Positions 308 to 37,643 of a DNA stretch of 37,643 nt are shown in pieces. Position 1 is the stretch's first letter. The number at the start of each line of letters is the position of its first letter. The stretch is from a virus. The translations under genes and the position numbers were made by a program. The notes beneath the pieces are model-generated. The model was not told where the DNA came from. It did not search any database and saw only the letters and a list, made by a program, of their open reading frames with translations. Where the stretch lies: IMG/VR virus record IMGVR_UViG_3300012683_000007, positions 1-37,643 of that record; one strand, given 5' to 3'.

Positions 308-635
308 TCCATTATTCATCTTTCAGAATCAGACTACTGATTTAACTACAGGCGCCTTCTATTTAGATTACGCCAATAAAGTTGTAGTCCAGGTGCACGG
401 CACTTGGAACGGAGCAACATTAAAGTTACAGCAAGGGATCGTGACCGGAACGGGTGGAACAACTGTTTGGGTAGACATCAATGACAAAATCAATATCCCA
501 TATGACTTCACAGAAAATGATGTGCTAACTCTTACTGAGTTTATCTACAACCAGCCTATTCGGGGCGTATTAACAGGATCAGGCGGCAGCACCAATCTAA
601 CTTGTACTTTGCAAGTGGTGATAGGAGCATCTTAA
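291..635 (+). CDS. Hypothetical 114-aa protein, probably virion/fibre-associated by position
   Basis: Track ORF. Its stop overlaps the fibre start (TAATG at 633-637), indicating translational coupling. No recognisable motif. Confidence 0.6.
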
Positions 636-3343
636 TGGCAGTCTATGATTTTTTGGATCGAGATATTGTAACTGCGTATTCGCAAATAGAGTGGAATGGC
701 GTTGCTTTGCCGCGCCAGACGATTTTAAACTTTATTGCGACGAGCTCAATTACCATAGCTGACAATCCTGGCAATGGCAGTACGGATATTACATTTGCGC
801 CTAATTTAGAGGCTTTAGCAGCCTATAATACAAATGGTTTACTAACTTATACTGGAAGCCATACCTTTGCAGGACGTACTATTACTGGGACTGCGGGAAC
901 TATTACCGTTACTAATGGAGATGGTGTCGCCGGGAATCCAACTATAACTATAGACGCTACTTATGCGGGACAAACTTCGATTAATACTGTTGGTACTATC
1001 ACTACTGGGACTTGGCATGGCAACATACTTACTGGGACTTATGGAGGTACTGGAGTTAATAATGGTAGTAATACTATCACCCTAGGTGGGAATATTAATA
1101 CTGCAGGTCCCCTTACTACTCTTGGTGCTTATGGTGTCACATTTACCTTTACAAACACAACCAGTGTAACCTTCCCTACTAGCGGGACGCTTGCTACAAC
1201 CAGCCAATTACCTACTTTGCCACTTAGTATAGCTAACGGTGGTACCGGCCAAACTACGGCAACCGCTGCCTTCGATGCACTAAGTCCACTTACCACGCAA
1301 GGTGATATTCTCTATTACAATGGCACGCATAATGTGAGATTAGGGCCTGGAACTAGTGGGTATGTGCTCACCACACAAGGCGCTAGCGCTAATCCTATCT
1401 GGGCGGCTGGTGTAGTCACTACGGCATATGAGACCATCCAGAGCAGCACTACACCCCTTACGCAACGTCTAATACTTAACTTCGTAGGTGCGGCTGCAGT
1501 CATCTCTGATAATGCCGGGAATACTAGCACAGACGTTACTTTTAACACCAGTCTAAATCAAATAGCCGGTGGCACGTGGACTGGAGCATCTTCTATTACG
1601 ACTTTAGGCACTATAGTGACAGGTATTTGGCATGGCACAGTAATAGGGTCCACTTATGGCGGCACAGGTATCAACAATGGTAGTAGCACTATAACGCTAG
1701 GTGGTAGCCTTACTACTTCAGGCGCGTTTGCTAGTACTTTCACTATGACCAATACTACTACTGTAACCTTTCCAACTTCTGGGACTTTGGCAACTACTTC
1801 GCAGATTCCTTCTTTACCTTTGAGCCTAGCGAATGGAGGGACGGCTGCAAGCTTAGTGGCTAACACTGGTGGTATAGTCTACTCAGGCGCGTCAGCTTTC
1901 GCTGTGCTTGCAGGGACTGCAACTGCTAATCAGGTTCTTTTGTCTGGTGCCACAGCAGCGCCCACATGGTCTACAGCTACTTATCCAGCTACTACCACTA
2001 TAAACCAACTTCTCTACTCTAATGCAGCTAATGCTATTGTTGGTTTGGCAACTGCAAATAGTGGGGTCTTAATAACCTCTAGTGGAGGCGTTCCATCTAT
2101 AAGCGGCACATTGCCAAGCGCAGTACAAGGTAATATTACTACAGTTGGCACTGTAACTTCTGGTACGTGGAATGCTGGTGTTATTCCTCTGGCTTATGGT
2201 GGTACGAACGCTAATCTTACCGCTAGTAATGGGGGCATTTTTTACTCTACTGCTTCAGCGGGCGCGATATTATCTGGCACCGCAACTGCAAACCAACTAT
2301 TACTCTCAGGCGCTAGTGGAGCGCCAGTATGGTCAACTGTAACGCATCCAGCAACCACTACTATAAATCAGATACTTTATTCAAGTAGTGCGAATGTATT
2401 GGCGGGTCTAGCCACAGCGAATAGCGGCGTCTTAATCACCGATGGGTCTGGAGTGCCATCAATAGGTACAACATTGCCGAGTGGCGTCCAGACTAATATC
2501 ACAAGTTTAGGGACGGTAACTACGGGCACTTGGAGCGCGACAGCTATTGCTGTAACAAAAGGCGGGACTGGACTGACTTCATGTGCGCAAGGTGATATAT
2601 TCTATGGTTCAGCTAGTAATACAATTGCGGCGCTTGCTAAAAGCACTACGGCTACGAACTATCTGTCTAACACTGGCACAACCAACAATCCGGCATGGGC
2701 GCAAGTTAACCTTGCTAATGGAGTTACTGGGAATTTACCTGTAGCTAATCTTAACTCTGGCACAAGCGCCTCATCTACTACATTTTGGCGTGGAGATGCA
2801 ACATGGGCCGCTCCTGCTGCAGGAGCAATGACGCAAATCTCGTCTCAAACGGCATCTTCTAGCGCAACTATAGATTTTACAGGCCTTAGCACCACCTACA
2901 ATACATATGTCATTGATGCAATTAATATTGTGCCTGCAACCGATAATGTAAATCTGTATTTCCGCACCTCTACTAATAATGGCTCTACATTTACTGCCTC
3001 GGCTGGCGCATATTCATATGCGGGGATATATTCTGATAATGCCGGTACTGTAACACCGGTAGGTAATAGTAGTGCTACAGAAATTAGGTTACCGCAAGGG
3101 GGAGGGCTTGGCGCCACTTCGCCTGCAAATTATTGCGCTAGATTTGTTCTATATTCTCCAGATGTTGCCGGTGTAACTACTCAAATATTTGGACAGTCTG
3201 TTGGACTTGATAGTGGTGGAGGCAATAAGACCGCTACTCATTGTGGAACCCGGGCAGTAGCTGAAGCTAATAATGCCATAAGGTTCCTCATGAGCTCAGG
3301 TAACATCGCTTCAGGCACATTTATTTTATACGGAGTAATTTAG
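635..3343 (+). CDS. Large modular tail fibre / receptor-binding protein (902 aa from ATG 635)
   Basis: AGGAG lies 7 nt upstream of ATG 635; the track's TTG start at 602 is less likely. The protein is Thr/Gly/Ser/Ala-rich. It has repeated modules (GTWHG..YGGTG.NNG..ITLGG; [21 protein letters not shown]) that are shared with 3783..5306 and 27427..28173. Confidence 0.85.
1868..2590 (+). repeat. In-frame tandem duplication inside the fibre gene (units 1868-2230 and 2231-2590; 121 and 120 codons), followed by a degenerate third unit
   Basis: Protein units [36 protein letters not shown]... and [36 protein letters not shown]... align end to end. Confidence 0.85.
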
Positions 3344-5694: not shown

Positions 5695-5889
5695 ATGGGA
5701 CGCCATCGCGGCAATAACATAACCTTAACTGTAGCGCTAAGGGGAGAACCGAAGTTCTTCGATAAAGTATGCGAAAAGGCCGTCAAGCATGAGGGCTCAG
5801 TCGCAGCATACGTCATGCGGGTCCTAACAGAGCATGAAATTGCGGATGAAGCCCGGGAAAGGCGGCTAACTCATAAGAGTGCTAGCTAG
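5695..5889 (+). CDS. 64-aa protein, possible ribbon-helix-helix DNA-binding fold
   Basis: AGGAG lies upstream of the ATG. A beta-strand-like ITLTVAL followed by two helical segments fits an RHH layout. The 3' end overlaps the convergent recombinase gene by 8 nt. Confidence 0.45.
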   Translation: MGRHRGNNITLTVALRGEPKFFDKVCEKAVKHEGSVAAYVMRVLTEHEIADEARERRLTHKSAS

Positions 5890-6499
5890 CCTGCATTAGT
5901 TGGCCGATAGATGGCTGTATGTCTACGGCAGATATATTGGCCTTCCTAGCAACTCTATATACCGTAGACTCGCTAACCTTAAACACATTACCTAATTGCG
6001 CAATAGAATATTTACCGCTCCTGTAGTGCTCTAAAAGCATTTCTTCTTTGACCCGATCCAGTACTCTAGGCCGTCCGCCGAATCTCCCCTGCTTATTAGC
6101 TGTCGCCAAGCCGTTTTTAGTACGCTCACTTATATTGTCCCTATCGAGCTGAGCTAGGCCAGCTAATAATGTATACAAGAATCTGCCCATTGGGGTGGTT
6201 GTATCTATTGGGATGCCATTTAGTATCTTCAGCTCTATGTTGCTATCAGCAAACTGCTTACTGAGTTGCATAAGCATCAAAGAGTTGCGGGATATCCTAT
6301 TTAACTCTGTGGCAACCAACAAGTCGCCGGGCCGCAGGAATTCCAAACACGCATTCCATTGTGGGCGATGATCCCAGGTACCCGTATGGTGCTCACTAAA
6401 AATCTTTAGGCATCCAACTGCCTGGAGCTGATCAATCTGCGAATCCAGCTTTTGGTTCTTGTCTTTTGTTGAAACACGGGCGTAACCTATTAAATTCAT
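5882..6499 (-). CDS. Small serine recombinase of the Hin/Gin/Cin invertase-resolvase family (205 aa)
   Basis: N-terminal LIGYARVSTKD contains the catalytic Ser. It also has NRISRNS (a DRLGR-type motif with Asp replaced by Asn), MGRFLYTLLAGLAQLDRDNISERTKNGL, GRFGGRPR, and a C-terminal HTH (SIAQLGNVFKVSESTVYRV). AAGAGG SD upstream. Confidence 0.9.
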   Translation of the reverse strand: MNLIGYARVSTKDKNQKLDSQIDQLQAVGCLKIFSEHHTGTWDHRPQWNACLEFLRPGDLLVATELNRISRNSLMLMQLSKQFADSNIELKILNGIPIDTTTPMGRFLYTLLAGLAQLDRDNISERTKNGLATANKQGRFGGRPRVLDRVKEEMLLEHYRSGKYSIAQLGNVFKVSESTVYRVARKANISAVDIQPSIGQLMQAS

Positions 6500-7236: not shown

Positions 7237-7475
7237 GTAATAATCACCCATATGAGTCACCGGAAGATTGGTTTAAAACGTTTAAAGCCAATAGAGAGAG
7301 GGCAAGAATAGCCGGCGAGAAAGAATTTAATACTAGGAGGATGAAAAAATTTCAGACGGCTGATGTTGTACCCGGTCTAATAACTATACTAACAGGTCAC
7401 AACACAGACGATGGCATAATTTATATCGAAGATCTGCATACATATAAATATGATAAAGAGGACAAAAATGACTAA
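7233..7475 (+). CDS. Hypothetical 80-aa protein
   Basis: GAGGA SD upstream and an ATGA overlap with the upstream gene. Confidence 0.65.
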   Translation: MSNNHPYESPEDWFKTFKANRERARIAGEKEFNTRRMKKFQTADVVPGLITILTGHNTDDGIIYIEDLHTYKYDKEDKND

Positions 7476-8295
7476 AGATACAAATACACTAAGTAAAGAA
7501 AGTTTAATGAGGATTTCTTCAGTAGCATTGCTATTTGGGATAGAAATTGATTGGTTTATAGAGTGGAGTGAGTATCCTGATTTTCCTCTACATGCCATAA
7601 AAACGATGCGCGGCCCTAAGTATCTCCAAAGTGAAGCGTATGATGTATTTACAAAAATCTGTAAAAAGGAAATTATCATCCCGCCTCTTTCTGAAGATAG
7701 GCGGAAGATTTTAAGAAAATTTAGAACTACTGCGCGATATGGAGGACCCCTAGTTAGTTATTTAACACAAGAAGAGATTGATGCTTTGCCCACAATACCT
7801 ACAGAAAGGGTAACTTTGACCGATGGGAATGGCTTGCGGTTAGATATAAGTACTGCTGGTAGATGGACTTGGTCATATATGTATCATCTAAGAAAAGGTC
7901 TGAATCAGCATATTTTCCTAGGAGAATATCCTAAAATGTCTTTGGAAGACGCCAGAGCTATAAAGCGAAAGGCTCGGTTAATGATTATGGAAAGGAAGGA
8001 ACCAATAGAGTATTTAAAGAGTCAGGCGCATAAAAAATTACGCGATATTCTGCGTGAGACGCGCATATCTGTTCCATTATCTCCTGCTGTTGGCGAGGTT
8101 ACTACTGCTACTTGGAGGGGGATGATTTTACAGCAAGATCAAAGGCTTCAGAACCAACAAGAAGAAATCGCCCGAGAATTGGCACAGTTTGTGTCCTACT
8201 GGCTCGCTCATTTACCAGAAAACACTCAATTGCTTCAGCTTCTTGATGAGGTGATAATTAAGCATCGTTGGCCTACTGAGGTACCACCTCTATGA
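7450..8295 (+). CDS. DNA-binding protein with an AlpA/excisionase-like HTH plus a P4-integrase-type arm-binding (DUF4102-like) domain and no recombinase catalytic domain (likely start ATG 7468)
   Basis: The N-terminus LMRISSVALLFGIEIDWFIEWSEYPDFP resembles HTH_17/excisionase. Residues ~118-188 (VTLTDGNGLRLDISTAGRWTWSYMYHLRKGLNQHIFLGEYPKMSLEDARAIKRKARLMIMERKEP) match the integrase N-terminal domain pattern. The protein ends about 90 aa later with no R..HxxR..Y signature. Confidence 0.7.
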   Translation: MIKRTKMTKDTNTLSKESLMRISSVALLFGIEIDWFIEWSEYPDFPLHAIKTMRGPKYLQSEAYDVFTKICKKEIIIPPLSEDRRKILRKFRTTARYGGPLVSYLTQEEIDALPTIPTERVTLTDGNGLRLDISTAGRWTWSYMYHLRKGLNQHIFLGEYPKMSLEDARAIKRKARLMIMERKEPIEYLKSQAHKKLRDILRETRISVPLSPAVGEVTTATWRGMILQQDQRLQNQQEEIARELAQFVSYWLAHLPENTQLLQLLDEVIIKHRWPTEVPPL

Positions 8296-12928: not shown

Positions 12929-13294
12929 GTGGGTATTATTAACAGAGCACAAAATATAGAACTTAGCTTCGACAGAGAAGAGCTGCGCTCGTCTCATTAT
13001 TGCAATGACCCTGCAGTAATAGCAGAGTACAATGCGCGCATTAATACGGTAACTAAAGCATTGGCAACACTCTCCCCTAAGCTTGAGAGGATCATCAGGC
13101 TCTATTACGGATTTAACATAGAAGGCATGATGTTGAAGTGTATTGCCGAAAGCGTGCTCACCTATCATTCTGGTATCGGAATGCATCCTGTATCCAGAAC
13201 AATGATAGGTGAGTTATTAAGAAGAGGGGAACGAAGACTGAGGCATCCTGAAATAAGCAGAAAGATCCTTAGTCGCCTCATGATACGTTACTAG
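12929..13294 (+). CDS. Free-standing sigma-70 region-4-like protein (121 aa, GTG start)
   Basis: LSPKLERIIRLYYGFNIEG...VSRTMIGELLRRGERRLRHPEISRKILSRL parallels the RpoD region 4 pattern (L..rEr.VL.LRfGL....TLeEvG..f.VTRERIRQIE.KALRKLRHPsRS..L..fL). No region 2/3 is present. AGGAG lies 3 nt upstream of the GTG. Confidence 0.6.
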   Translation: MGIINRAQNIELSFDREELRSSHYCNDPAVIAEYNARINTVTKALATLSPKLERIIRLYYGFNIEGMMLKCIAESVLTYHSGIGMHPVSRTMIGELLRRGERRLRHPEISRKILSRLMIRY

Positions 13295-13342: not shown

Positions 13343-14785
13343 CTACACACTCACCTGATTTGACGCCAATAGGTCTTGATTACGTACCCATTCTTTATCA
13401 ATAACGCTTGCTTCTTTAACAACGATTAGGAAATTAGGTTCATCTCTTTCAGCTACGGAGTTCGCGACAGTGCTAACAGCCGTATGGGATAGGTGTAGCA
13501 TCGCTGACCGTACCATTTCTGTATTAGATGGAGTTGCATCTTTAATTATCTGATTGCCTTCCCGAATAAACGCATCTGGCACATAGTGAGGCCCAGGAAC
13601 CTTAATAGATACAGGCATCTCACTATTCTCAGTTATGTACTTGATTCTAAGGGCAACTGGGTGGTCTTGAGCCGCCTCGATAGTCGGATTATTTCCTCGT
13701 AAGCTTTGGATATACTGTAATTGGTAAGCCACTGTGGGTGCTGGCACTAATCCAGAGCGCCATTCCAGGACCTTACTATAAGCACCTTTAGCTACCTCTG
13801 CTATTGCGTAAAATATGGTATGAGGTAGTCCTGCAAGTGTAAGTTTATGTTGGTCTGCGAAAGCTTTCATGGCATCGAATGCCTTTCCGTCTGCCTTCTG
13901 GTTAAGCGCATCCTGTAGTGCAGCATCAATCAAGTGCTTATCCCGGGCATACGCACGGTCGTCCATGTGCAAGTAATAAAAATATACTGCTGTAGTAGCG
14001 CCCACCGCGATGAGTGCAATACCGCCCATTACAGCAACCACTATCCATCCTGCAATTGGCACTAAGGCCGCTGTAGCTGCAACCCCTCCATACACTGCAC
14101 CTAATTCCAGAGCGCCCATCGTTATCAAGCCTCCTGCAAAGGAAGTGGCTGCACCTCCTATAACAAGCGCAGTTGCTTTACTTTTAGCATTGGACTCTAA
14201 GTATTCTTTTCTAGTTTTAAAGGCGCCCCGCGCCGCTTTTGTATTGGCGCGTATATGTGCATCTAAATCATCTATCCTAACCCTATCGGCTTCCCTCTGC
14301 TCCTTTAGAAGGACTATTTCGTCGTTTTGAGCCAGTACCATATCTTTCTGAGCTACCATCATCTGTTCTAGCCTTTCCAGACGTTCCTCAGTGCTTTCTT
14401 TTTGGCTTATAGCCTTCTTGGTCTTCTTCTCGGCCAGTTTTTTCTCTCTCTCTGCTTGCGCCTTCTCTTTTGCTAACTTATGTGTTTCTTCGATTTGCTT
14501 TTTTAATGCCACGTTAGGCTTGAACTCTGCGGTTATAGGCTCACTAGTATTAGGAGAGGTTCCATTAGTGTGTTGCCATTTAGTAATATCAGCGCGTTCA
14601 TAAGTGTGCCCATCTGACGCTACTACGGGGTCTTTCATTATTTCTTGAGTAATAGGACATACCTGGGTAATCTCCTCCAAAACCCTCTTTTCTTTTTCTG
14701 AGCCAGAGTCATCACTGTCGTACCCAATAAGCGGCTGTTTATCTTCCTTTTCCTTTTCGCGGATAGGTGTTTTTTCGTTGCGCAT
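13343..14785 (-). CDS. 480-aa membrane protein with a eukaryotic-type U-box (E3 ubiquitin-ligase) domain, a coiled coil, a hydrophobic hairpin and an unknown C-terminal domain
   Basis: Track ORF with GAGGT SD. Domain evidence is given in the two sub-features below. Confidence 0.9.
   Translation of the reverse strand: MRNEKTPIREKEKEDKQPLIGYDSDDSGSEKEKRVLEEITQVCPITQEIMKDPVVASDGHTYERADITKWQHTNGTSPNTSEPITAEFKPNVALKKQIEETHKLAKEKAQAEREKKLAEKKTKKAISQKESTEERLERLEQMMVAQKDMVLAQNDEIVLLKEQREADRVRIDDLDAHIRANTKAARGAFKTRKEYLESNAKSKATALVIGGAATSFAGGLITMGALELGAVYGGVAATAALVPIAGWIVVAVMGGIALIAVGATTAVYFYYLHMDDRAYARDKHLIDAALQDALNQKADGKAFDAMKAFADQHKLTLAGLPHTIFYAIAEVAKGAYSKVLEWRSGLVPAPTVAYQLQYIQSLRGNNPTIEAAQDHPVALRIKYITENSEMPVSIKVPGPHYVPDAFIREGNQIIKDATPSNTEMVRSAMLHLSHTAVSTVANSVAERDEPNFLIVVKEASVIDKEWVRNQDLLASNQVSV
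13970..14176 (-). other. Gly/Ala-rich hydrophobic block (aa 204-272), with two to three predicted membrane spans
   Basis: ATALVIGGAATSFAGGLITMGALELGAVYGGVAATAALVPIAGWIVVAVMGGIALIAVGATTAVYFYYL: about 70 residues, one charged (a single Glu, E227). Confidence 0.8.
14480..14674 (-). other. U-box domain-coding segment (aa ~38-102)
   Basis: CPITQEIMKDPVVASDGHTYERADITKWQHTNGTSPNTSEPITAEFKPNVALKKQIEE fits the U-box consensus CPI..E.M.DPV....G.TYER..I..W......P.T...L....L.PN..LK..I. Confidence 0.85.
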
Positions 14786-14892
14786 GGTATACCTCGATGC
14801 TAATTATTTTGGTATAAATAGAATTAACACCGAGGGGGACATTAGGCAATTAGTAATTTATGAATATTTCGATAAGTTCGATGTATGTCATT

Positions 14893-15312
14893 TTATTCCC
14901 CAAGATCGGTATATTCTTCGGTGCCCATGTAAACATGCCGCACTCTAAAGTTACACGCCTCTGTTACTAAAGCTTCCTCGACCTGTACATGCTCCACAAA
15001 TTCATGGAGCCAGGTAAACACTTGACTACTACTATCTGTATCCCAGTCTTCGTTAAGATTCATTTCCAGTATTAGGTTGCCACTCGCTATCCCTAGATAC
15101 ACGTCAATTAAACAGTCCCATTGGCATTTCTTTTCAATGAATTGCTTAAGCTCGAACGCTATGATTGGCGGAGCATTATCTCCGCTAACCATAATGTCAA
15201 ATAGCATGGTTTGTGGTATATTTAAGCTCCTCAAAGTGCCCTTCGGCTCCTCCTCTGCCTTATTGATGCATATTGATTCACCCGTAACTTGGTTTATTAG
15301 TAATGTTCCCAT
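14893..15312 (-). CDS. Hypothetical acidic 139-aa protein, immediately upstream of the U-box gene
   Basis: Track ORF with the conserved AACAATAAAGGA leader. No recognisable motif. Confidence 0.7.
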   Translation of the reverse strand: MGTLLINQVTGESICINKAEEEPKGTLRSLNIPQTMLFDIMVSGDNAPPIIAFELKQFIEKKCQWDCLIDVYLGIASGNLILEMNLNEDWDTDSSSQVFTWLHEFVEHVQVEEALVTEACNFRVRHVYMGTEEYTDLGE

Positions 15313-15344
15313 TGTTTTATCCTTTATTGTTATTAAAATTGTTA

Positions 15345-15608
15345 TTAAAATGGCGCATCGTCAGTATCATCCGAGCTAAACTCATCCGATACTGGCACTT
15401 CTTCCTCTGCTGTCTTTTCCTTGTATCGTTCCTCGAGCTCTGCGGCAAGCTCTATAAGCTTGTAACTTTCAAGCCTAAGCAGTATTTCAACGATCTTGCC
15501 TATTAAATTGCCTCTTAAATACAACGGATTCTCTTCTATTCCTTCAAATAAAAGCTGGTCGTCTTGCTCCTCATAGTCACCACAACCGCATTCGTTATAT
15601 TCACCCAT
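15345..15608 (-). CDS. Hypothetical strongly acidic 87-aa protein (Asp/Glu-rich termini)
   Basis: Track ORF with AAAGGAGAATAA leader. Confidence 0.7.
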   Translation of the reverse strand: MGEYNECGCGDYEEQDDQLLFEGIEENPLYLRGNLIGKIVEILLRLESYKLIELAAELEERYKEKTAEEEVPVSDEFSSDDTDDAPF

Positions 15609-15610
15609 AA

Positions 15611-15817
15611 TTATTCTCCTTTATTGTTGATTTTTTTGTATTGATTTATTAGCATAGTAGTAACTATTGCATCTAAACTTTTATACTTTTCTGTAAGAAG
15701 CTCGATAATCACCGTTTCCAATGTGATAGGCCCAGCGCCAGTCATCTTATTGAGGTCCTCAATTTTATGAATAAAAGTTATTATTTCGTCCGTTAGGTGC
15801 AGCGTTATTGTTTGCAT
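15611..15817 (-). CDS. Hypothetical 68-aa protein
   Basis: Track ORF with AAAGGAGAATAA leader. Its stop lies 2 nt from the next start. Confidence 0.7.
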   Translation of the reverse strand: MQTITLHLTDEIITFIHKIEDLNKMTGAGPITLETVIIELLTEKYKSLDAIVTTMLINQYKKINNKGE

Positions 15818-15829
15818 AGTTATTCTCCT

Positions 15830-15997
15830 TTAATTGTTAATGTATATTGCTATCTGTATTCCCAGCTGCACACCCAATTCAAGCATGATTGCGGCGCAGC
15901 CAAGCATCCTATAGCATAGTTTTGCAAGGATTTGGCCCATAAGCTTTTTATCTTCGATTATCATTTCTGCATATGATGCGTTTTCTAATGTTTTCAT
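15830..15997 (-). CDS. 55-aa hypothetical protein (MKTLENASYAEMIIEDKKLMGQILAKLCYRMLGCAAIMLELGVQLGIQIAIYINN), below the track cutoff
   Basis: Read by hand. It shares the leader motif (AACAAATAAAGG) and fills an otherwise empty gap in the operon. Confidence 0.5.
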   Translation of the reverse strand: MKTLENASYAEMIIEDKKLMGQILAKLCYRMLGCAAIMLELGVQLGIQIAIYINN

Positions 15998-16041
15998 TGT
16001 TTTAGCCTTTATTTGTTATCACACTGGACGTTGTTTAAAAG

Positions 16042-16263
16042 TTATGCTGGCAAAGCTTCTGGATGCGGTATGTTACTTGTTATAGCTCTATCAAAGCAGT
16101 TCCAAGCAACGCGATGTATCTTTTCCAAGCTCCATGCGCCAACAGCAGTTATTTTCATTACACGTGCCTTGTAGTTGTTGTATATCTCAACCTCATATAC
16201 GGTCTTGAACTTACCTTTCTCATAAGCGTATGTAGTATCTTTAATAGTTATAACAGTTCCCAT
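16042..16263 (-). CDS. Hypothetical 73-aa protein, first gene of the minus-strand operon
   Basis: Track ORF with AAATAAAGGA leader, lying downstream of the candidate promoter at 16306-16334. Confidence 0.7.
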   Translation of the reverse strand: MGTVITIKDTTYAYEKGKFKTVYEVEIYNNYKARVMKITAVGAWSLEKIHRVAWNCFDRAITSNIPHPEALPA

Positions 16264-21038: not shown

Positions 21039-21314
21039 TTATTTCGCTTGGTATATATCGCTTCTATGACCCACTTTTACCACAGTAATAGTGATAGTTT
21101 CTTGTGACACATCATATATAACGCGATAGTTTCCGACTCTATAACGCCAAAGGCCAATATATCTGCCATAGAGTGGCTCTCCAAGCCCTAATGGGTCTAA
21201 TACTAAGTATTTCTCTACCTTTTGAACTATCCTACTCTTTGTTTTTTTATCGAGTTTATGTAAGTCCTTGTTGAGTTTGTTATCCCATGTAATCTTATAC
21301 ATTATTCTCTTCAT
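21039..21314 (-). CDS. RelE/ParE-family type II toxin (alternative start 21302 gives MYKITW...)
   Basis: LHKLDKKTKSRIVQKVEKYL..DP...GEPL.G...GLWRYRVGNYRVIYDV....ITITVVKVGHRSDIY is a clear RelE/ParE signature. Confidence 0.9.
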   Translation of the reverse strand: MKRIMYKITWDNKLNKDLHKLDKKTKSRIVQKVEKYLVLDPLGLGEPLYGRYIGLWRYRVGNYRVIYDVSQETITITVVKVGHRSDIYQAK

Positions 21315-21519
21315 CCTCGAAACTAGCCAATAATTCTTCTGTAGTTAAAAGAATTTGATTTGGATCGCGTAATCTTTTTAATGCTTCCTCGCCATCTTCC
21401 CAATCTTCTATGTAGTGCATTATAGCTTCACGCGCATAGAAAGTCTTAGTTCTATTTGTATTGGCAGCTAAGGCATTTAGTCTATCTTCAAGTTGTTTTG
21501 GCAATCTAATTGTAATCAT
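21295..21519 (-). CDS. Ribbon-helix-helix antitoxin (74 aa from ATG 21519; the track's 21600 start is too long)
   Basis: MITIRLPKQLEDRLNALAANTNRTKTFYAREAIMHYIED is a CopG/ParD/RelB-type RHH. AAGAGG SD upstream. The gene overlaps the toxin start. Confidence 0.85.
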   Translation of the reverse strand: MITIRLPKQLEDRLNALAANTNRTKTFYAREAIMHYIEDWEDGEEALKRLRDPNQILLTTEELLASFEDEENNV

Positions 21520-21533
21520 GTTAACCTCTTTTT

Positions 21534-21567
21534 TTGTATTGTAATACAAAGCATGCATGTATGTCAA
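21534..21567 (-). promoter_or_regulatory. Toxin-antitoxin promoter (TTGACA-18 nt-TACAAT) with an operator-like palindrome TTGTATT-GT-AATACAA over the -10
   Basis: Read on the reverse complement: -35 at 21562-21567, -10 at 21538-21543, palindrome at 21534-21549. Confidence 0.6.
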
Positions 21568-21590
21568 GCTAAAGAATGTGATGAGGAAAT

Positions 21591-21623
21591 AAAAGGGCAC
21601 ACATATGTCAGGTATGCCCTTTT
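21591..21623. terminator. 9-bp stem hairpin (AAAAGGGCA ... TGCCCTTTT, 15-nt loop) that insulates the toxin-antitoxin cassette from the portal side
   Basis: Perfect inverted repeat. The A/T runs on both flanks would allow bidirectional action. Confidence 0.4.
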
Positions 21624-37305: not shown

Positions 37306-37643
37306 ATGGACTTTGATGGTCTTAATAATAAGTTTCATGACAAGCTATATGCGTTTATCGACAAGTGTAATGCTCACGAGATCGTTTTAGAGTTCGAAAC
37401 TGGGTTCGTTCACCCACGTGAACAAGCGCGGCTATGGAGGAAAGGCAGATCAGATAGTGAGATCGATGCAAAGATTGCGGAATTCCAGCTTGCCGATGCA
37501 GATTATTTGGTCAAGCTCTTAATAGATGCGCATGCTCCGGAAGGGCTCTCATTGACAGACGATCTCCCTGGTTTTACCTGGCATAACTGGGGACAGGCGT
37601 ACACTTTCTGCATCCTTGGTGAGGACGGCAGGCCGATCTTATC
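37306..37643 (+). CDS. 5' part of the junction-spanning M15-like peptidase ORF (continues at base 124 on the closed circle, ends at 307)
   Basis: GGAG SD 8 nt upstream of ATG 37306. The frame is open to the window end and continuous with 1..307. Confidence 0.6.
   Translation, partial: MDFDGLNNKFHDKLYAFIDKCNAHEIVLEFETGFVHPREQARLWRKGRSDSEIDAKIAEFQLADADYLVKLLIDAHAPEGLSLTDDLPGFTWHNWGQAYTFCILGEDGRPIL
37521..37643. repeat. Terminal overlap, copy 2 (identical to 1-123)
   Basis: Base-for-base identity with the window start. Confidence 0.95.

Follow-up and report, generated by a model that had tools for sequence, protein, structure and literature searches.

We describe a canonical, eukaryote-like U-box domain encoded by a small podovirus-like phage. 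The DNA analysed, hereafter the window, is the whole 37,643-nt stretch of IMG/VR record IMGVR_UViG_3300012683_000007, and the U-box is part of a 480-aa protein whose full-length, ATG-initiated gene (P0001) occupies positions 13343..14785 on the minus strand. To our knowledge, U-box ligases are a hallmark of eukaryotes and are represented on the bacterial side only by secreted pathogen effectors and by the U-box-like NleG proteins of enterobacterial prophages. No report of a canonical U-box in a phage was found in the literature searched. Moreover, no counterpart of the protein was detected in 50,697 GenBank phage records (tblastn), in PHROGs or in 72,556 plasmids. We read the protein as a phage-borne, membrane-targeted E3-ligase effector directed at a eukaryotic cell, a reading that we hold tentatively, at a little under an even chance.

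The U-box spans aa 38-102 (14480..14674, minus strand) and its identity is well past chance. The Pfam profile PF04564 matched aa 42-100 over positions 6-66 of its 73, with E = 1.1e-14 and 54.8 bits where the gathering threshold is 21.4, and is precomputed on every family member. Sequence comparison against the PDB returned plant PUB U-boxes (1e-9), LubX (2.8e-9) and CHIP (1e-4). The AlphaFold (AF2) model of the region (pLDDT 80-87), which has the cross-brace alpha/beta fold of a U-box and no zinc ligands, was superposed by Foldseek on the U-boxes of OsCIE1, GmPUB13, CHIP, E4B and LubX at 1.1-1.9 Å over 60-67 residues with a probability of 1.00, and the superposition targets include U-boxes solved with E2 enzymes. 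The eukaryote-like U-box first recognised in the translated letters is thus upheld by profile, sequence matches and modelled fold. The patch that would bind an E2 is also kept: I45 (the Ile of CPI), W70 in the central helix and P78 in loop 2 are invariant in 9/9 U-box-containing family members. I45 and P78 correspond to the E2-contacting residues Ile235 and Pro269 of CHIP, and I45 also to Ile39 of LubX, the Ile of its CPI motif, which is required for E2 binding. At position 81, the equivalent of CHIP Arg272 and E4B Arg1143, 6/9 members have Arg or Lys and the protein of the window has Ser. Comparison with the orthologue in the sibling phage L002 shows purifying selection along the entire ORF (dN 0.18, dS ~1.7), the U-box being its most constrained part (dN/dS ~0.07).

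The ends of the window share a 123-bp overlap, and the window therefore represents a closed genome of ~37,520 bp. PHROG matches were obtained for the terminase (341 bits), a P22-type portal (243 bits) and the major head protein (137 bits), and RecT and a replication initiator are also encoded. By its gene content the window is a podovirus-like tailed phage with a P22-type portal and a predicted HK97-type capsid and SU10-type adaptor; profile scans of its genes detected no tail-tube, sheath or tape-measure families. PF16510, PF13252 and PF24175 are present in sibling phages. The head and terminase matches, together with the end overlap, bear out the earlier placement of the U-box in a complete, small phage of this type. 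A megablast search gave no match, and the portal is 25-28% identical to those of the best GenBank phages. The absence of a megablast match and a portal identity of at most 28% ruled out an APSE- or WO-like phage. A phage-plasmid was also rejected, PLSDB containing no U-box homologue and no portal relative above 25%; the serine recombinase, with no match above 45% identity, is uninformative on this question. The closest relatives among characterised phages, at 25-34% identity, infect free-living aquatic bacteria and have their hosts in the Proteobacteria and Cyanobacteria. No tRNA genes were found in the window or at the L040 junction.

The U-box gene is the final gene of a leftward cluster of small genes. 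Co-oriented ORFs of 139, 87, 68, 55 and 73 aa (14893..16263, minus strand) lie upstream, beyond a 107-nt spacer (14786..14892, minus strand), so that the ORF list and the sequence both agree with the distal minus-strand position, behind an upstream region of its own, that had been described for the gene. A GAGGT ribosome-binding site is found 5 nt before the ATG. The spacer also contains a weak sigma-70-like match (ATGACA-17-AATATT) which, at 9/12 in a promoter scan, is not above the shuffled background. An identical copy of the 480-aa protein exists in public data on a 37.5-kb contig. Since the nearest U-boxes come from eukaryotes or giant viruses, one might suspect an artefact of assembly or annotation, in which a eukaryotic or giant-virus piece was misjoined to a phage contig. 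We consider the chance of this negligible: the genome closes on itself, GC content is uniform along the gene, the ribosome-binding site is bacterial and purifying selection is ORF-wide. Independent recovery refutes the artefact: the full-length architecture turned up in at least nine separate sequencing runs, on phage contigs that are syntenic with one another.

Approximately ten sequence clusters have the same architecture of U-box, helix, membrane block and C-terminal domain. Members with usable context all belong to one sub-clade of ~37-kb phages, with a single MAG-borne exception. On sequence grounds the U-box gene is not a one-off insertion, being conserved throughout the sub-clade down to 26-30% identity. 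The slot that it occupies is a variable cargo slot, with different genes at the same place in sibling phages. In L002 the gene directly upstream encodes an HTH_3 (Cro/CI-type) protein, an arrangement in keeping with a lysogenic-conversion gene. The related phage L022, on contig SRR17050895_193213, has a second architecture, of U-box and membrane block only (229 aa); the pairing of U-box and membrane anchor is therefore the target of selection. Two further candidates were discarded. P0007 was considered as a natural U-box-less variant, but its ORF is still open at the contig end, and L025, a candidate second U-box phage, is a eukaryotic- or giant-virus fragment.

Outside the U-box, the protein begins with a disordered leader (aa 1-37, 14675..14785, minus strand; pLDDT <50) that is K/E-rich, contains the acidic Ser cluster YDSDDSGSEKE and has an REKEK..K.PL motif and residues S27 and E30 that are invariant in four close homologues. 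The U-box is followed by a long charged helix (14177..14479, minus strand), modelled by AF2 as one continuous helix of ~115 residues (aa 92-206, pLDDT ~77, 43% charged) with an E/K-rich single-helix part and then a heptad-like part. Its sequence is weakly conserved across homologues and its charged character is retained. Because heptad periodicity is only moderate (best register 0.52 vs 0.29), the helix may be partly an E/K-rich single helix and not a coiled coil. Of the Lys/Glu-rich coiled coil in the initial annotation, the charged helix stands, and the coiled coil may hold for only part of it.

The membrane block (aa 204-274, 13964..14176, minus strand) was assessed by 19-residue Kyte-Doolittle windows, the Hessa scale and composition. 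It comprises 71 residues with 41% Gly+Ala, a Kyte-Doolittle peak of 2.4, 11 small-xxx-small motifs and a basic flank on the upstream side, and its residues G234 and W247 are invariant; AF2 confidence over the block is below 50. Across the family the block is glycine-zipper-rich, with a length of 55-90 residues and a Gly+Ala content of 32-43%. In the window's protein, aa 244-262 are the sole strong span by the Hessa scale (dGapp -0.6), and the two preceding segments, at +2.8 and +4.9, are marginal. Membrane anchoring is therefore predicted by both scales; the hydrophobic block had been assigned two or three spans, a number which now becomes one strong span and one or two marginal ones. The block had also been likened to the hydrophobic hairpin of chlamydial Inc proteins. 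Both proteins do have a disordered N-terminus and a hydrophobic block as the one insoluble part of their sequence. However, the Inc block is bilobed, of ~40-60 residues and two spans of ~20 residues joined by a short loop, and with a single strongly hydrophobic span and a length of 55-90 residues in the family an Inc-like hairpin is not established. No chlamydial signal was seen in the phage data, nor any sequence similarity to Inc proteins.

The remainder of the protein forms an all-helical domain (aa 275-480, 13346..13963, minus strand) that AF2 models as eight helices with a pLDDT of 84 and a pTM of 0.81. Searches of Pfam, PDB sequences and Foldseek-PDB (best Foldseek E 0.65, TM <0.3) returned no relative, in keeping with the earlier remark that this region of ~200 aa could not be placed. 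It is nearly as constrained as the U-box (dN/dS ~0.09 against the L002 orthologue), with Y326 and N411 invariant and D275, L317, W342 and P391 almost invariant. The C-terminal tail of the protein is polar and little conserved and, like the disordered N-terminus, is not diagnostic of a secretion signal. The protein thus presents a new membrane-anchored, predicted E3 architecture with a ~200-aa helical domain without known fold relative.

As a eukaryote-directed effector, the gene would be cargo in a clade of ~37-kb podovirus-like phages with an uncultured Gram-negative host (Pseudomonadota). With its Ile45/Trp70/Pro78 surface the U-box would bind a UBE2D/UbcH5-type E2 charged with ubiquitin, the ~115-residue helix would keep the U-box off the membrane and probably dimerise it, the Gly/Ala-rich block would act as the anchor, and the helical C-terminal domain may pick the substrate or partner. 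Since bacteria lack such E2 enzymes, the protein most likely acts in a eukaryotic cell. The target would be a protist, either a grazer of the host bacterium or a cell in which that bacterium lives, reached through a secretion system of the bacterium or by phage lysis within the eukaryote. All characterised bacterial U-box or U-box-like proteins known to us (LubX, GobX, NleG) are translocated effectors. The canonical U-box and its top constraint, the variable cargo slot, the pairing in L022, a copy in a Pseudomonadota MAG and the absence of E1, E2, ubiquitin-like and defence-system matches among the genes scanned argue for this function; the free-living aquatic hosts of the relatives, the lack of a clade prophage and a sole host link to a flagellated Pseudomonadota MAG argue against it. 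The suggestion of a eukaryote-directed effector made at the outset is favoured by the conserved E2-contact residues and by the affinity of the U-box to protists and giant viruses, but it is not established, and the intracellular or amoeba-associated host that it implied was not found.

The last hydrophobic segment, with its negative dGapp, is strong enough to enter the inner membrane of the bacterium, and insertion there would be an obstacle to translocation. The protein may instead act in that membrane within the bacterium, during infection or lysogeny, with the U-box as a dimerisation or binding module devoid of ubiquitin chemistry; superinfection exclusion, membrane remodelling or the anchoring of a phage or host complex would be example roles. 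We regard this as rather unlikely. Conservation of the gene through the phage sub-clade is consistent with it, the single strong span, flanked upstream by basic residues in most members, predicts ordinary inner-membrane insertion with a cytoplasmic U-box, and glycine-zipper-rich blocks are usual in oligomerising membrane proteins. Moreover, the C-terminal domain is conserved like the U-box, with no eukaryotic relative found, and the link between host and eukaryote is putative. However, the invariant residues are exactly the E2-contact set, and a plain scaffold needs neither Ile45 nor Pro78. The U-box is 41-59% identical to those of plant and protist ligases, which points to retention of the ancestral function, and the protein has no match to a PHROG family of known function.

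A cytoplasmic U-box, if the positive-inside rule holds, would equally suit an E3-like factor, anchored in the membrane, that binds an E2-like enzyme of the bacterium and blocks or redirects a ubiquitin-like conjugation defence. Bacteria are known to possess antiphage conjugation systems of the E2-like and ubiquitin-like kind, and the candidates here would be Bil/Bub-type, CBASS Cap2-type or eukaryote-like Ub/E1/E2/RING operons. The protein is phage-encoded and conserved, like anti-defence genes. The neighbourhood of the gene offers no support for such interference, which the initial annotation had raised as its second hypothesis and which we consider improbable. PADLOC gave 0 matches for the U-box protein and seven neighbours, and none of the window genes scanned matched the Pfam families UQ_con, ThiF, ubiquitin or JAB (E2, E1, ubiquitin-like and deubiquitinase proteins). 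The small upstream genes matched nothing in PHROG, Pfam, PADLOC or NCBIfam, and inspection by eye for a ubiquitin- or E2-like partner among them found neither a C-terminal Gly-Gly nor an HPN motif. The U-box is also far closer to eukaryotic ones than to any bacterial family, with no matching model in NCBIfam, and we know of no bacterial conjugation system that has a U-box E3. Interference would further leave the membrane anchor and the 200-aa extra domain without explanation.

The effector reading invites comparison with known bacterial ligases. LubX (LegU2) and GobX of Legionella pneumophila are U-box E3 effectors translocated by the Dot/Icm T4SS. U-box 1 of LubX resembles the phage U-box in both sequence (2.8e-9) and fold, and the CPI isoleucine (Ile39) is conserved. 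However, LubX contains a pair of U-boxes and lacks a membrane segment, whereas the phage protein has one U-box and a membrane block; GobX is also membrane-targeted, but by lipidation and not by a hydrophobic block. Both lack the long helix and the C-terminal domain, neither is encoded by a phage, and their identity to the phage U-box is only ~30%, below that of plant and protist U-boxes. The NleG proteins of EHEC/EPEC and Salmonella are E3-type T3SS effectors that are likewise cargo of phage genomes. They are U-box-like in structure only, form their own Pfam family, and are soluble proteins of ~200 aa carried by lambdoid enterobacterial prophages. The NleG family was absent from the Pfam matches of the U-box protein at E<=1, and tblastn of that protein gave no match in the 50,697 phage records, which are expected to include EHEC prophage-type phages.

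Amongst proteins of other origin, plant PUB12/13/14, CHIP, E4B and giant-virus U-boxes are the best matches (41-46% identity, 1.1-1.9 Å), and CHIP shares with the phage protein a long dimerising helix next to its U-box. The partners of eukaryotic and giant-virus U-boxes are ARM, TPR, ankyrin and vWA domains, none having the phage membrane block or C-terminal domain and, unlike them, the phage gene has a bacterial ribosome-binding site and resides in a tailed-phage genome. A eukaryote-like or eukaryote-directed gene in a variable cargo region of a temperate-type phage is a concept shared with the eukaryotic association module of phage WO and the toxin cassettes of APSE. However, these have no sequence relationship to the window phage, and their bacterial hosts are intracellular symbionts. 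The term 'U-box' has 0 occurrences in the full text of the paper on the WO module (PMC5062602).

The nearest U-boxes outside the family are those of the protist Paratrimastix (59% identity) and of giant-virus MAGs, and another near one belongs to a U-box-vWA-Hint protein of a eukaryotic virus. The most likely source of the U-box is a protist or giant virus. It is quite possible, if just short of probable, that such a U-box was captured and fused to a membrane-anchored protein of the phage, and that the product either arms a protist-dwelling bacterium or drives or subverts conjugation at the inner membrane. If so, no canonical U-box E3 ligase would have been known from a phage before; the former variant would constitute a minimal eukaryotic association module outside Wolbachia, and the latter, more radical one the first U-box-dependent conjugation in bacteria. 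A canonical U-box under strong constraint, conserved through a clade of small tailed phages, would also mean that phages move eukaryote-derived ubiquitin machinery between uncultured environmental bacteria, that phages exchange genes with protists or giant viruses in settings other than Wolbachia/WO, and that the gene could serve as a marker for bacteria in intimate contact with protists.

Lastly, we sought the bacterial host. Two portal-pattern scans of 185,579 species-representative genomes (GTDB) revealed no integrated prophage of the clade, a weak negative given that each scan relied on only two short peptides as patterns and on a single genome for every species. Lysogeny of the clade is accordingly putative. 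Scans of JGI and IMG/VR for a host returned only free phage-sized contigs, and longer contigs (53-64 kb) with related portals held only phage genes in the parts fetched. Amoebophilus and Cardinium, both Bacteroidota, are rich in U-box proteins. However, gene starts in the window are often preceded by AGGAG-type Shine-Dalgarno motifs, and a Bacteroidota host is therefore unlikely. One family copy, cut by the contig end, was found alongside chromosomal genes in an unclassified Pseudomonadota MAG, assembly GCA_018242185.1 (JAFECK01), at a GC content equal to that of the phage. The 11 kb seen of this MAG contain dcw and flagellar genes, and its FtsI and dGTPase, compared with the PDB, are approximately equidistant from beta- and gamma-proteobacterial references. 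As a separate observation, IMG sample 3300042988 also gave a Pedinomonas plastid MAG, which indicates that the sample was aquatic and rich in eukaryotes.

The U-box gene lies on the minus strand at 13343..14785 and encodes 480 aa from an ATG start in the ORF list. A GAGGT ribosome-binding site precedes it, and 107 nt lie between it and the preceding co-oriented gene; both the coordinates and the upstream spacer were found exactly as first annotated. Downstream, a 121-aa ORF with weak similarity to sigma-70 region 4 and ECF sigma factors (12929-13294, plus strand) converges on its 3′ end, with 48 nt between the stop codons. Residues 42-100 match Pfam PF04564 (E = 1.1e-14; score 54.8 bits, gathering cutoff 21.4); matches to related RING-like families were weaker and overlapping, as expected. 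A PDB sequence search retrieved plant PUB U-boxes (1e-9), Legionella LubX (2.8e-9) and CHIP (1e-4). In an AlphaFold2 model built from a ten-sequence family alignment, the U-box was predicted confidently (pLDDT 80-87) and was the sole part matched by Foldseek in the PDB, superposing at 1.1-1.9 Å rmsd on U-boxes crystallised with E2 enzymes (OsCIE1-UBC8, CHIP-UbcH5, CHIP-Ubc13, E4B-UbcH5c and LubX-UBE2D2). Among viral predicted structures, giant-virus U-box proteins alone were matched. Equivalents of the known E2-contact positions (CHIP Ile235 and Pro269, LubX Ile39 and the central-helix Trp) are invariant in all nine family members that include the U-box; the equivalent of CHIP Arg272 (E4B Arg1143) is Arg or Lys in 6/9 and Ser in the window protein. 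The canonical U-box of the initial annotation is thereby borne out: profile, predicted fold and E2 surface all place the domain firmly within the family, with putative ligase activity.

The remainder of the protein begins with a disordered leader (aa 1-37), in which an acidic Ser cluster, YDSDDSGSEKE (window 14690-14722, aa 22-32), is kept among close homologues and is reminiscent of eukaryotic motifs for CK2-type (S-x-x-E/D) phosphorylation or acidic-cluster sorting. Residues 92-206 form a single unbroken helix (pLDDT ~77), 43% of which is charged. Its first third is E/K-rich, like a single alpha-helix, and the remainder has moderate heptad periodicity; the proposed coiled coil is therefore supported only in part. 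The following hydrophobic region (aa 204-274) was modelled at low confidence. It contains 41% Gly+Ala and eleven small-xxx-small motifs, reaches a Kyte-Doolittle 19-residue peak of 2.4, and is flanked by basic (net +3) upstream and slightly acidic downstream sequence. On the Hessa biological scale the last segment alone (aa 244-262, taken to open with the invariant Trp247) is predicted to self-insert (dGapp -0.6 kcal/mol), the two preceding it being marginal (+2.8 and +4.9). In most family members the strongest segment likewise comes last, with weaker ones ahead; across the family the block is 55-90 residues long. Taken together, these features lend good support to a predicted membrane anchor, and do not support the two-span, Inc-like hairpin suggested earlier. 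We do not file the protein with the Inc proteins. The helical C-terminal domain was modelled at high confidence and, as an isolated 209-residue fragment, folded into eight helices (pLDDT 84, pTM 0.81). It has no structural neighbour in the PDB (Foldseek, best E 0.65, TM <0.3) and no Pfam or PDB-sequence relative, even with the family profile, in keeping with its description as a domain that could not be placed.

Full-length relatives are scarce. A collection of 5.8 billion proteins contained just three others sharing words with the U-box protein (71, 68 and 33% identity). When 1.84 billion representatives were searched exhaustively with HMMER, 9,825 U-box matches were obtained and only about ten clusters of full-length family members, the most divergent at 26% identity, all with the same four-part layout. 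Every member with a fetchable contig resides on phage DNA that is syntenic and of one lineage with the window, the complete contigs being ~37 kb (L001-L004, L005, L006/L007 and L008/L009). In these phages the portal shares at least 69% identity with that of the window. More distant clade members (portals 44-68% identical), drawn from 148 portal relatives on 31-40-kb contigs, have different cargo, or none that could be recognised in the fetched parts. The gene occupies a variable cargo slot, and in the sibling phage L002 it is preceded by a Cro/CI-type gene. Other cargo includes an 812-aa fusion of a sodium-solute symporter and a histidine kinase, a CbrA-like sensor (L024 4106-6544), an N6/N4 DNA methyltransferase (L023 5608-6981) and a protein of 168 aa similar to the C-terminal domain of RNA polymerase alpha (L008 2128-2634). 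The related phage L022 (portal 71% identical) encodes a 229-aa U-box protein in place of the 480-aa form. The last 58 residues of this protein comprise a hydrophobic block rich in Gly, Ala, Val and Ile, in which the 'GP.G' turn recurs, and a short polar tail. Therefore, U-box plus membrane anchor looks like a recurrent, selected unit, to which the C-terminal domain looks like an addition. Within L022 1-2025, this gene adjoins one for a 604-aa ribonucleotide reductase. Set against its L002 orthologue, the window gene is under purifying selection, which bears most heavily on the U-box (dN 0.079, dS 1.16) and on the C-terminal domain (dN 0.135, dS 1.52); in the helix and membrane block, composition is retained and sequence is not. 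The gene is not an assembly artefact, since it was recovered independently from many runs and selection acts across the whole ORF.

Beyond the family, the nearest U-box sequences share 45-63% identity over ~60 residues and belong to anonymous metagenome proteins, the sole named source being the protist Paratrimastix. IMG/VR relatives fall in giant-virus MAGs and 50-400-kb contigs. The one small contig, L025, was rejected as a phage relative: it encodes a U-box-vWA-Hint protein beside a GIY-YIG/zinc-knuckle gene and is therefore a eukaryotic-virus fragment. No relative of the protein was found in GenBank phages, PHROG families or plasmids, and no NCBIfam model matched. Literature searches returned NleG effectors carried on prophages and the eukaryotic association module of phage WO, and no canonical U-box in a phage.

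Given the canonical fold, the invariant E2 surface and the strong constraint on the U-box, the best-supported reading, with a chance approaching even, is a phage-borne, membrane-anchored U-box E3 ligase that would use eukaryotic E2~ubiquitin as a lysogenic-conversion-type effector for a bacterium meeting protists. The affinity of the domain to protist and giant-virus U-boxes, the variable cargo slot and the position behind a Cro/CI-type gene in L002 also favour this, as does precedent, since to our knowledge all characterised bacterial U-box proteins are translocated effectors. Counted against this eukaryote-directed function, which the initial annotation had proposed, is that the strongest hydrophobic segment should insert into the inner membrane of the bacterium. 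On the main rival reading, the protein would work at that membrane during the cycle of the phage itself, and its U-box would serve for binding or dimerisation; we consider this unlikely. The second earlier proposal, interference with bacterial ubiquitin-like conjugation, gained no support, as no PADLOC model matched and no E1, E2 or ubiquitin-like partner was detectable by Pfam among the phage genes scanned. The latter absence also favours the effector reading, and we regard interference as improbable. Tested against the NleG family, the protein proved not to be a member. The predicted mode of action of the effector is most similar to that of GobX and LubX, with which it is not classed, and as phage cargo it is conceptually akin to that of phage WO and APSE. 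It differs from both groups in three respects: its gene is carried by a small podovirus-like phage whose host is an unclassified proteobacterium, its anchor is Gly/Ala-rich and its C-terminal domain is novel.

The window ends (1-123 and 37521-37643) are identical over 123 bp and therefore represent a closed (circular or terminally redundant) assembly of ~37,520 bp, agreeing with the genome size first estimated. A large terminase, P22-type portal, major head protein, virion proteins, RecT and a replication initiator are encoded. Siblings have an SU10-type adaptor, and farther out in the clade a virion protein includes a lytic transglycosylase (SLT) domain. This is the podovirus-like plan described initially, and one suited to a Gram-negative host. 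AGGAG-type Shine-Dalgarno motifs precede about half of the window genes. The sole recombinase is a 205-aa serine recombinase of resolvase/invertase type (5882-6499, minus); a 281-aa protein (7450-8295, plus) has Arm-DNA-bind_3 in its middle and no integrase catalytic domain. Between the terminase and portal genes, on the opposite strand, lies a toxin-antitoxin pair (within 21039-21600) of a 91-aa ParE-type toxin (21039-21314, minus) and an overlapping RHH/TraY-like antitoxin (21295-21519, minus), which hints at episomal maintenance or abortive infection. Megablast of the window found no match among 50,697 GenBank phage records, and its portal (≤28%) and terminase (≤34%) are only distantly identical to those of phages of Paracoccus, Rhizobium, Microcystis and Roseobacter and of freshwater-spring viromes; by sequence, the phage is far from any characterised one. 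Short segments of a 913-aa tail-fibre-like protein (602-3343, plus) are 52-60% identical over ~55 aa to Pelagibacter podophage proteins and to a 'carbohydrate-binding' protein of a marine fosmid phage, which fits an aquatic origin.

Lastly, neither of two scans for related portals in 185,579 species-representative genomes turned up a prophage relative; both are weak negatives. The sole host lead is P0007 (MBS0235936.1), a family member at the extreme end of a 70-kb contig (L040) of MAG GCA_018242185.1, labelled 'Pseudomonadota bacterium' by NCBI. Since the ORF of P0007 meets no break before the contig ends, the apparent lack of a U-box is truncation, and we rejected P0007 as a genuinely U-box-less form. 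A dGTPase gene lies ~600 bp past its stop codon, followed by mraZ-rsmH-ftsL-ftsI, a histidine kinase, tRNA-Pro and fliK-flgD. In this junction region (L040 1-1750), a 104-aa two-span membrane ORF without a phage relative lies between P0007 and the chromosomal dGTPase/dcw-cluster genes, and no tRNA or repeat marks the junction. The contig has a GC content of 40-45%, equal to that of the phage. Such a context would be seen if a relative had integrated with the gene at one edge of the prophage, or if the copy is chromosomal; in both cases it points to an uncultured, flagellated Gram-negative bacterium. The IMG sample of one related contig also yielded the plastid genome of Pedinomonas, a green alga, which suggests an aquatic community rich in micro-eukaryotes.
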